Positions 57,596-63,128 of a DNA stretch of 64,000 nt are shown here, piece by piece. How positions within the stretch are numbered: position 1 is the first letter of the stretch; the number at the start of each line of letters is the position of its first letter. The stretch is from Candidatus Saccharimonadota bacterium (GTDB lineage Bacteria > Patescibacteriota > Saccharimonadia > Saccharimonadales > Saccharimonadaceae), in contig JAFVBJ010000003.1 of the NCBI GenBank assembly GCA_017480035.1, positions 298,126 through 362,125 of the forward strand. The letters run 5' to 3'. The position numbers and the translations under genes are program-made. The notes below the pieces were generated by a model, which was given only the letters and a program-made list of their open reading frames with translations, did not search any database and was not told where the DNA came from.

Positions 57596-57698
57596 TGGTG
57601 GTAGCCATGCTGCGCATGTCTTCCACCAATCCAGCTCGCTTCGCTCGTTTTTTGTCTTGCGACAAAAAACTTGCCTTCGGCAAGTTCTGGATTGGTGG
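57596..57698 (-). repeat. Multi-hairpin element at the tRNA-Phe 3' end
   Basis: Perfect 12-bp IR 57623-57634/57687-57698 enclosing inner hairpins; TGGTGGT repeated at 57596 and 57693. Confidence 0.7.
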
Positions 57699-62323: not shown

Positions 62324-62351
62324 TTGACAATCATTTTGCTCGTGCTAAAAT
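62324..62351 (+). promoter_or_regulatory. Sigma70 promoter with extended -10 and A-rich upstream tract
   Basis: TTGACA 62324-62329, TGC-TAAAAT 62343-62351. Confidence 0.75.
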
Positions 62352-62357
62352 TAAAGT

Positions 62358-62495
62358 AAGATTTGAGCGTTGTTGAGAGAAGCTCGAATCGAAAAATCCG
62401 GGTGGAGTGTGAAGTTAATTTGGCTAATTGCTATGAACTAGCAACCACCTAGAAATTAACTTGAAAAAGAAATACGCCAATCAAGGCGTATTTTT
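62358..62495 (+). ncRNA. Candidate ~138-nt structured small RNA
   Basis: Lies between a promoter and a terminator; two hairpins; no ORF. Confidence 0.5.
62470..62495 (+). terminator. Intrinsic terminator
   Basis: AAATACGCC/GGCGTATTT plus T tract. Confidence 0.8.
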
Positions 62496-62610
62496 ATAGC
62501 AGTTTCGCTGAAAATATGATAAAATAAGTCTACGGTGCTGTAGGCAGAAGCCTTCATCGCCGGCATTCGCAAAAGATGCCAAAGCAAACTTTGTCACCCT
62601 TTGCTCATTT

Positions 62611-62684
62611 GGCGCTGTGGCGGAGTGGTTACGCAGAGGTCTGCAAAACCTTGTACACCGGTTCAATTCCGGTCGGCGCCTCCA
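62611..62684 (+). tRNA. tRNA-Cys(GCA)
   Basis: GGCGCTG/CGGCGCC acceptor, U73, GAGGT-CT GCA AA-ACCTT, CCA. Confidence 0.95.
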
Positions 62685-62764
62685 CGACGAATGAAAGCAA
62701 GCTTTCTTCGTCGTGTTCGGCACCTTGATTGCCTAACGGTAAAACGGCGCCTCCAAATTTATTA

Positions 62765-62849
62765 GCCCTGGTGGCGGAATTGGTATACGCGTTCGACTTA
62801 AAATCGAATGGAGAAATCCATATGGGTTCAAGTCCCATCCGGGGCACCA
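62765..62849 (+). tRNA. tRNA-Leu(TAA)
   Basis: GCCCTGG/CCGGGGC acceptor, TTCGA-CT TAA AA-TCGAA, CCA. Confidence 0.95.
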
Positions 62850-62939
62850 CTGGTACGACCCGCACCATCGCGGTGAAAACATTAAAAGAAAAATAGCTTG
62901 AAATATCATCAAAATTTGTTATAATAAACATACATTCAT

Positions 62940-63016
62940 GCGAATGTAGCTCAGTTGTTTAGAGCGCTTCCTTGCCAAGGAAGAGGTCGAGAGTTAGAGT
63001 CTCTTCATTCGCACCA
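62940..63016 (+). tRNA. tRNA-Gly(GCC) with U19/A56 and A73
   Basis: GCGAATG/CATTCGC acceptor, CTTCC-TT GCC AA-GGAAG, T-loop TTAGAGT, CCA. Confidence 0.92.
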
Positions 63017-63060
63017 CTAAGTGCCGGTTGACCCCCCTCAGCCGGCACTTAGTGGTTTTA
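63013..63060 (+). terminator. Long hairpin terminator overlapping the tRNA-Gly ACCA end
   Basis: ACCACTAAGTGCCGGTTGA/TCAGCCGGCACTTAGTGGT followed by TTT. Confidence 0.75.
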
Positions 63061-63128
63061 GGCCTAAAAAACTATCGATTTTTTTGCATAAGTTTGATAT
63101 AATAGATACATAATTAAAAGGAGATAAA

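Follow-up and report, generated by a model that had tools for sequence, protein, structure and literature searches.

An apparently undescribed family of tRNA-tail echo modules behind tRNA-Cys and other tRNA genes of Ca. Nanosyncoccus

The rtT repeats of the E. coli tyrT operon (RtT RNA, RF00391) are co-transcribed 178-nt tandem units that lie directly behind a tRNA gene and end in a copy of the tRNA 3′ end, including the CCA; their function is unclear. In plant mitochondria, t-elements act as tRNA-like processing signals. The gene context of rtT is mentioned in a preprint (bioRxiv 10.1101/2024.07.17.603846). Insertion mediated by an integrase classically leaves partial copies of a tRNA as its footprint (bioRxiv 10.1101/2020.12.28.424599). 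In E. coli, a structured tRNA trailer is removed by PNPase or RNase P, as in the leuX terminator-removal pathway (PMC2811032).

The DNA analyzed here (the window, 64,000 nt, G000:C3:298126–362125) belongs to a 773-kb, 97.5%-complete genome, G000. The other G codes denote genomes of relatives, and the comparison set holds 369 genomes of the genus Ca. Nanosyncoccus. Behind tRNA-Cys(GCA) of the window stands a trailer of 71 nt (62685–62755), of which 60 nt are the insert proper. The trailer is real and non-random and belongs to a lineage-wide family that is apparently undescribed, being absent from Rfam and from the literature searched. As an operational definition, an echo module is the unit from the CCA of a tRNA to an exact copy of that tRNA's own tail, CCA included.

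By analogy of build, the closest known parallels are the rtT repeats and the partial-tRNA att scars. Like rtT, the trailer is non-coding, lies behind a tRNA, ends in a CCA-ended tail copy, is reiterated in tandem, and is, we infer, co-transcribed. Unlike rtT, it has 71 nt, is inside a tRNA–tRNA spacer, and has its like behind many different tRNAs in hundreds of species; the RF00391 covariance model gives no match in 62350–63100 (E ≤ 10). As in att scars (CIMEs, tycheposon islands), repeats of a tRNA 3′ part bracket the insert, relatives differ in its presence, serial events would push older copies downstream, and a hot spot for accessory genes adjoins (in G009). Unlike those scars, the insert is short (60 nt), carries no cargo, has no integrase nearby, has an identity block of only 8–18 nt, and contains compensated hairpins. 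Like the leuX terminator-removal trailers, it is a folded segment beside a tRNA, for tRNA-processing enzymes, and, like the t-elements, it may offer an acceptor-like NCCA helix readable by RNase P. Unlike both, the Cys trailer carries an exact copy of the neighboring tail, and its part in trailer processing is that of a candidate. With integron attC sites, the trailer shares variable sequence on a conserved hairpin geometry, gain or loss of whole units, and a weak hint of better folding on the bottom strand, but R′/R″ core motifs, IntI, and cassette ORFs are absent, and the likeness serves as a lead only.

The tRNA-Cys locus of the window

All the features listed in the preliminary description were found again on the sequence at the stated coordinates (Table 1). 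The exact 11-nt repeat CGGCGCCTCCA, reported there, does occur twice and comprises the 3′ acceptor strand of tRNA-Cys, U73, and CCA. It has three occurrences on the two strands of the 773-kb genome; chance alone would give ~0.0004 copies per 150 nt. The hairpin CACGACGAA/TTCGTCGTG, said to capture the terminal CA, is present as well (arms 62683–62691 and 62707–62715): the CA of the CCA end forms the first two pairs of H1, which continues inward as a GAAAG-CAAG-CTTTC stem. The folding energy of H1 is −17.7 kcal/mol against −5.6 ± 2.1 kcal/mol for dinucleotide shuffles (z = −5.7). CGGCACC (62718–62724) can pair with the upstream GGTGCTG, but the complementarity is not perfect as claimed (six Watson–Crick pairs and one G–T wobble). 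Shuffle and chance controls, proposed as a possible refutation, leave the repeat and H1 far beyond chance but the 7-mers alone unremarkable: GGTGCTG and CGGCACC are each expected ~0.01 times per 150 nt and are hence not rare. What significance they have is to be sought in the relatives and not in the window alone.

Table 1. Positions of the tRNA-Cys locus features and of the tRNA-Phe module in the window
Feature	Position	Strand	Basis or remark
Extended −10 box TATGATAAAAT, promoter of tRNA-Cys/Leu	62515–62525	+	Promoter scan; downstream of the upstream terminator
77-nt 5′ leader insert	62534–62610	+	Alignment of the tRNA-Cys 5′ regions of G000, G285, G022, and G003
tRNA-Cys(GCA), with U73 and encoded CCA	62611–62684	+	ARAGORN and Rfam, 62.8 bits
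A1, own tail of tRNA-Cys, CGGCGCC-U-CCA (repeat copy 1)	62674–62684	+	Repeat search
H1, 14-bp hairpin (9 bp, one bulged nucleotide, 5 bp, CAAG loop)	62683–62715	+	
Middle block GTTCGGCACCTTGA	62715–62728	+	Nearly invariant in 12 species
hp2, small hairpin TTGCC-TAAC-GGTAA	62729–62742	+	Compensatory changes
A2, exact tail copy 2, CCA-ended, 9 nt ahead of tRNA-Leu	62745–62755	+	
tRNA-Leu(UAA), downstream partner in the Cys–Leu transcription unit	62765–62849	+	ARAGORN and Rfam
tRNA-Gly(GCC)	62940–63016		ARAGORN and Rfam
tRNA-Phe module, same build as the Cys trailer	57596–57692	−	7-nt tail copy, hence weaker evidence

Other identities for the trailer or its parts were tried and set aside. H1 is not an intrinsic terminator: it is followed by GTTCGG instead of a U-tract, and the terminator scan is negative there. 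The conserved TTGAC might belong to a promoter of tRNA-Leu inside the trailer, but there is no −10 box at the correct spacing. Derivation from a MITE or IS does not fit a 60-nt insert without terminal inverted repeats and a duplicated length that varies from 7 to 18 nt between loci. With permissive thresholds, Rfam returned no family for this locus and eight loci with the core motif described below, except an unrelated L10 leader. Between A2 and tRNA-Leu, a scan for terminators and promoters found neither. Because there is no U-tract and tRNA-Leu starts 9 nt further on, the trailer would be transcribed as an internal spacer of the Cys–Leu unit. The −10 box lies 7–10 nt ahead of the tRNA start in G022, G048, G313, G149, and others; in the window, transcription probably starts at about 62532–62534, coinciding with the first base of GGTGCTG.

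That base opens the 5′ leader. GGTGCTGT, at 62534, is a 7/8 copy of tRNA positions 1–8, and both hairpins described earlier, GGC-AGAA-GCC and GGCAT-TCGCAAAAG-ATGCC (with an N9 loop), are present; the fold of the leader is mildly unusual (z = −2.0, dinucleotide shuffles). In G000 and in its sister species G285 (HisRS 86% identical), ~70–77 additional nt directly follow the first GGYGCTGT. In G022 and G003, the octamer runs straight into GGCGGAG and tRNA-Cys starts ~9 nt past the −10 box. Among the relatives with the upstream flank compared, the leader occurs only in G000 and G285. Its first 36 nt are 89% identical between the two and the remainder is unalignable; both species retain the GGC-loop-GCC hairpin and a small stem, (Y)GCTG...C(R)GC(R), but G285 does not preserve the anticodon-like GGCAT...ATGCC arm and its GCA loop. 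The leader had been likened to a decayed tRNA-Cys. With that arm not conserved in G285 and only the first 8–12 nt tRNA-like, the likeness does not hold; and since neither ARAGORN nor the Rfam tRNA model (to E ≤ 10) matches 62534–62610, the leader reads as an insertion with an 8-nt repeat and not as a recognizable pseudo-tRNA. On this comparison, it was inserted after tRNA position 8, separately from the trailer and more recently, with the 8-nt repeat as its boundary. In G008 (L033, G008:C8:64052–65206, minus strand), tandem partial copies of the promoter and tRNA-Cys stand upstream of the intact gene; they hold the first 59 nt of tRNA-Cys and are each cut at the T-loop (GGTTCAATT).

Of the 14 positions of the middle block, 11 agree with the tail allele GGTCGGCACCTCCA, and the block is probably a degenerate third tail copy, its CCA decayed to TGA. 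Apart from one A–C mismatch, its GGCACC is complementary to the GGCGCC present in each tail copy. Since A1 and A2 are identical and GGCGCC is its own complement, two folds compete that have roughly equal numbers of base pairs. The first keeps the native tRNA and has a helix between middle block and A2; the second, chosen by RNAfold and RNAalifold, pairs the tRNA 5′ strand with A2 and A1 with the middle block. The second fold is related to the suggestion of a nested precursor, in which an alternative acceptor stem, on the outside, would join the leader GGTGCTG or the tRNA 5′ strand to the distal tail copy and give a switchable or additional CCA-ended tRNA-like product. In favor of the suggestion, folding programs choose the outer pairing (minimum-free-energy folds of G000 and the RNAalifold consensus); moreover, positions 3 and 70 and the distal copy covary in G149 and G230. 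With A1 equal to A2, however, this covariation cannot separate the outer stem from the native one. The version that needs the leader strand is specific to G000: no other carrier with the upstream flank compared has the leader, and G285 has the leader without the trailer. We know of no bacterial pathway that would handle a tRNA whose T-arm is separated from the acceptor strand by an insert of 71 nt, and we find a nested precursor very unlikely.

Some further symmetries are present around the locus. A perfect 9-nt inverted repeat, CAATCAAGG/CCTTGATTG (62478–62486 and 62723–62731), joins the loop of the upstream terminator with the junction of middle block and hp2, and AATCAAGG occurs also within the tRNA-Cys promoter spacer of G003, G062, and G296. 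The terminator of tRNA-Gly(GCC) (63013–63056) has a 19-bp stem that opens with the tRNA's own ACCA; that of G285 has the same design with compensatory changes in mid-stem. The hairpins downstream from Leu-CAA, Val-TAC, and Glu-TTC of G000 likewise pair with the CCA. In E. coli, the glyW-cysT-leuZ operon encodes Gly(GCC), Cys(GCA), and Leu(UAA); the window has the same trio within 62611–63016, and G009 has it in the E. coli order.

The trailer among relatives

In the genus, a trailer of the same type (type 1) follows tRNA-Cys in 12 of the 369 genomes (G000, G003, G022, G009, G313, G048, G062, G296, G149, G256, G327, and G230). G263 holds a 13th exact match to the motif with no tRNA-Cys upstream; it is apparently due to chance and was left out. 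The order is always CCA, the 33-nt H1, GTTCGG(Y)(R)CCTTGA, an hp2 of 4–5 bp, the exact tail copy, and tRNA-Leu. The spacer between A2 and tRNA-Leu has 0–12 nt, except in G313 (longer) and in G009 (with an inserted gene); in G327 it has 0 nt, and the terminal CCA adjoins position +1 of tRNA-Leu. In 12/12 carriers, A2 is identical to the tail of the resident tRNA-Cys. In G149 and G230, the acceptor stem is GGTGCTG/CGGCACC and the terminal copy is also CGGCACC; the remaining ten have CGGCGCC both in the tRNA tail and in the copy. The middle block is nearly invariant and A2 is invariant but for one covarying site, among carriers with HisRS only 53–65% identical; the neighboring spacers and promoters resist alignment even for the sister species G000 and G285.

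Empty sites and length polymorphism were asked for among relatives in the preliminary description, and both are found. G285 shares with G000 the Cys-Leu-Gly order, the terminator, and the leader, but its Cys–Leu gap has only 16 nt, and the trailer is missing exactly at the repeat. At the level of these alignments, the unit is thus shown to be gained or lost exactly at the tail repeat. The idea of insertions at both ends of the gene is borne out as well, since both flanks behave as inserts between short direct repeats of tRNA ends. In the HisRS tree, carriers occur in at least three places and the well-supported branches require at least three gains or losses: one well-supported clade of six species is made up of carriers, G327 stands apart, G000 is beside the non-carrier G285, and G149 and G230 are beside the non-carriers G019 and G008. 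So patchy a distribution would be expected either from horizontal spread or from several exact losses between the 11-nt repeats. Reiteration occurs too: G001 has 2.2 units in tandem, and G048 and G009 each have part of a third unit. In G009 (L011:1777–3012), a gene for a PD-(D/E)XK nuclease (PF14281, E = 5e-26) lies between the Cys trailer and tRNA-Leu, just past the partial third hairpin unit, and accessory genes appear to have a hot spot here. Two wider scans were made. Contigs with two tail copies 45–75 nt apart were swamped by the tandem tRNA genes of Actinobacteria, and metagenome contigs with middle block plus tail gave only chance matches in GC-rich coding DNA.

The 12 Cys trailers were aligned for covariation. 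H1 is without indels, with 33 nt and a fixed bulge position in 12/12, and its stem sequence is different in each species. Changes on both sides of a pair, compensating each other, occur at 10 of 14 pairs in H1 and at 3 of 5 pairs in hp2. In H1, 94.6% of the cells are paired, against 39–46% with slid partners, and the observed values are reached in 0 of 500 shuffles. The helix between middle block and A2 has no covariation support in this alignment. H1 stems change about as fast as neutral spacer. Among the non-Watson–Crick cells of the helices, A–C (20) outnumbers G–U (4); counted as independent events, the numbers are roughly 12–14 and 4. With this excess of A–C over G–U, all three helices would pair better on the bottom strand, which argues, suggestively only, against selection on the sense RNA. 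In folding tests, the cognate tail stabilizes the terminal hairpin more than non-cognate tails do in 27 of 33 modules, by −2.9 kcal/mol on average; ungapped antisense complementarity to the cognate is not in excess (5.9 vs. 6.0). The trailer is under some constraint, of structure in the hairpins and of sequence in the middle block and the tail copy.

Echo modules behind other tRNAs

A search with the tail pattern and a gap of 30–60 nt, which misses type 1 (gap of 62 nt), revealed a second type of trailer behind tRNA-Cys in G324, G242, G336, G114, G127, G108, G001, and G151. In type 2, the CCA is followed by a hairpin that is short and variable, then by (T)TC(C)GGNNCC and the conserved core GCGTCCCAAGGGGC, and at the end by a tail copy of the genome's own allele. 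Behind tRNA-Cys, the tail copy follows four tail alleles (CGGCGCC, CGGCACC, CGGTGCC, and AGGCACC). The 12-mer core CGTCCCAAGGGG with a CCA-ended tail is present in 29 of the 75 genomes with a completeness of at least 98%, in up to five copies each; the reversed pattern, as a control, gave 0 matches. Such core modules stand directly behind tRNA-Asp, Cys, Thr, Leu(GAG), and Leu(UAA), with cognate tail copies of 8–15 nt, and the rule of the cognate tail holds for core modules with a tRNA upstream. The tRNA-Thr modules form arrays of up to three units, and in the tRNA-Pro module the copy is longer and takes in the whole T-arm.

The common build is CCA, a hairpin that abuts or takes in the CCA, a conserved segment, a small apical hairpin, and a copy of the own tail. 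The Cys trailer has the boundary copy of its own tail, compensated internal hairpins, and units of the same build elsewhere. It does not contain the core hairpin CGTCCCAAGGGG and has CTGCC/TTGCC-loop-GGCAG/GGTAA instead; with the same build but without the shared core, it is a type-1 variant. The sole core match in G000 (C3:139072) falls inside a 165-aa ORF and was treated as chance.

In G000, tail copies of at least 8 nt are found behind two tRNAs, for 0.25–0.5 expected. Behind tRNA-Glu(CTC) (G000:C2:101082–101270; L238:383–570), an exact 18-nt copy of its own tail (CTCCCGCAGGAGTCACCA) lies 67 nt downstream, in the order terminator-like hairpin, 35-nt segment, tail copy, and second terminator. 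The copy reaches into the T-loop with a 2-nt deletion and is missing in G327 (with an identical tRNA), G003, G285, and G022. Behind tRNA-Phe, a 12-bp pairing, CCACCAATCCAG with CTGGATTGGTGG, takes in the CCA end; the large hairpin pairs with CCACCA and encloses a terminator and two mini-hairpins, and the module ends with a CATGC-GCA-GCATG hairpin followed by a second ACCACCA.

Related sequences occur in other settings. In other Nanosyncoccus genomes, the core CGTCCCAAGGGG with a short GC-rich stretch ending in CCA is found also at loci without a tRNA (L282, L286, L290, L297, L299, and L308; L291, L293, L294, L305, and L284). Two contexts recur there: in one, long inverted repeats enclose the core and AGCTTATGG comes after its CCA; the other begins with GGGGCGCGTCGCTCGC. 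Rfam gave no family match for either context. At L005/L051 (G021:C10:3400–4800), at least two repeats of the final 32 nt of tRNA-Gly(GCC) follow downstream from the gene.

The recurrence of the core bears on the account that the trailer is the inert scar of one phage or island integration followed by deletion, or of one tandem duplication, with neither family nor constraint. The direct tail repeats that bracket the insert, and the nuclease gene inserted just past the trailer in G009, are what such a scar might leave. But a scar would not track the tail alleles, and it would hardly keep 14 + 11 invariant nt and two compensated hairpins at ~55% HisRS identity or share a core found behind at least five tRNA types. 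Conservation, covariation, and core recurrence already largely refute an inert single-event scar, and we hold it to be extremely improbable.

Origin and candidate function

In our judgment, the trailer is probably a co-transcribed tRNA-tail echo module, one of a lineage-wide family, with an origin at the DNA level and a candidate function. A DNA-level event at the tRNA 3′ end would duplicate the tail, either by serial insertion or an att-type crossover with a recombinase acting in trans, or else by template switching or unequal recombination that involves the tail and its hairpin. Repeated at the CCA end, such events might have stacked two sub-units, each of tail plus hairpin, in which the middle tail is the older and decayed one. 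A search for recombinases found none near the locus (C3:360736): matches to PF00589 are limited to C3:26207–26737 and to a weak fragment at C3:381510, and the sole tyrosine recombinase is ~334 kb from the trailer on the same contig. In the Cys–Leu transcript, the trailer may fold into self-contained hairpins and leave the true tRNA free to fold. The cut of RNase P at tRNA-Leu would leave a structured, CCA-ended 3′ end resistant to PNPase, and H1, by its fixed length, could place a double-strand cut after the CCA.

The processing machinery of G000 is reduced. All of its 45 tRNAs encode CCA. Searches of the genome for a CCA-adding enzyme (PF01743), RNase Z, RNB proteins (RNase R/II), and RNase E/G gave no match. 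PNPase, RNase III, RNase J, and RNase Y are present, with PNPase as the only 3′ exonuclease found. With no CCA-adding enzyme detected, over-trimmed CCA ends could therefore not be rebuilt; and, given the reduced inventory of RNases, few enzymes must handle structured trailers.

On another view, the trailer is a selected RNA processing element of the Cys–Leu precursor that would offset the missing CCA repair and the missing RNases Z, E, R, and II. H1 would then be a ruler of fixed length for an RNase III cut right after the CCA; middle block and hp2, together with A2, would make up a minihelix that resembles an acceptor and leaves UCCA free, for recognition by RNase P or protection from PNPase. 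E. coli provides a precedent in its structured trailers, and the RNase inventory is compatible. Several observations agree with such a role: the constant 33 nt and bulge of H1 under freely varying sequence, the upkeep of middle block and A2 over deep divergence, the folding preference for cognate tails, and the case of G327, where the abutting CCA implies that RNase P alone would make the CCA end. But the type-1 motif is missing in 357 of the 369 genomes, the sister species included, and some genomes without it have a type-2 trailer behind tRNA-Cys instead. The A–C excess disfavors selection on the sense RNA, a near-neutral rate in the stem of H1 is unusual for a selected RNA helix, and the tRNA-Glu module is present in one species only, located behind a terminator. 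We regard a processing element selected as such as unlikely.

Beyond the echo module of DNA-level origin that we prefer, a bolder version can be entertained, tentatively and with somewhat more credence than the processing element: that the modules are mobile DNA units, defined by structure, which insert at tRNA CCA ends and are excised there, or a lineage-specific RNA device that both defines and shields 3′ ends beyond repair. In the mobile case, the bottom strand would fold and be handled by a recombinase in trans, tRNA 3′ ends would be landing pads as in integrons, and the Cys trailer would be a domesticated array of two units.

If mobile, the modules would be among the smallest site-specific elements known and would help to explain how tRNA 3′ ends seed variable regions in the streamlined Saccharibacteria, where classical mobile elements are scarce. 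Should they be RNA devices, they would illustrate how a lineage with a toolkit of only PNPase and RNases III, J, Y, and P matures and protects its tRNA ends by means other than rebuilding. Either way, echo modules are conserved and easily recognized, and current annotation ignores them.
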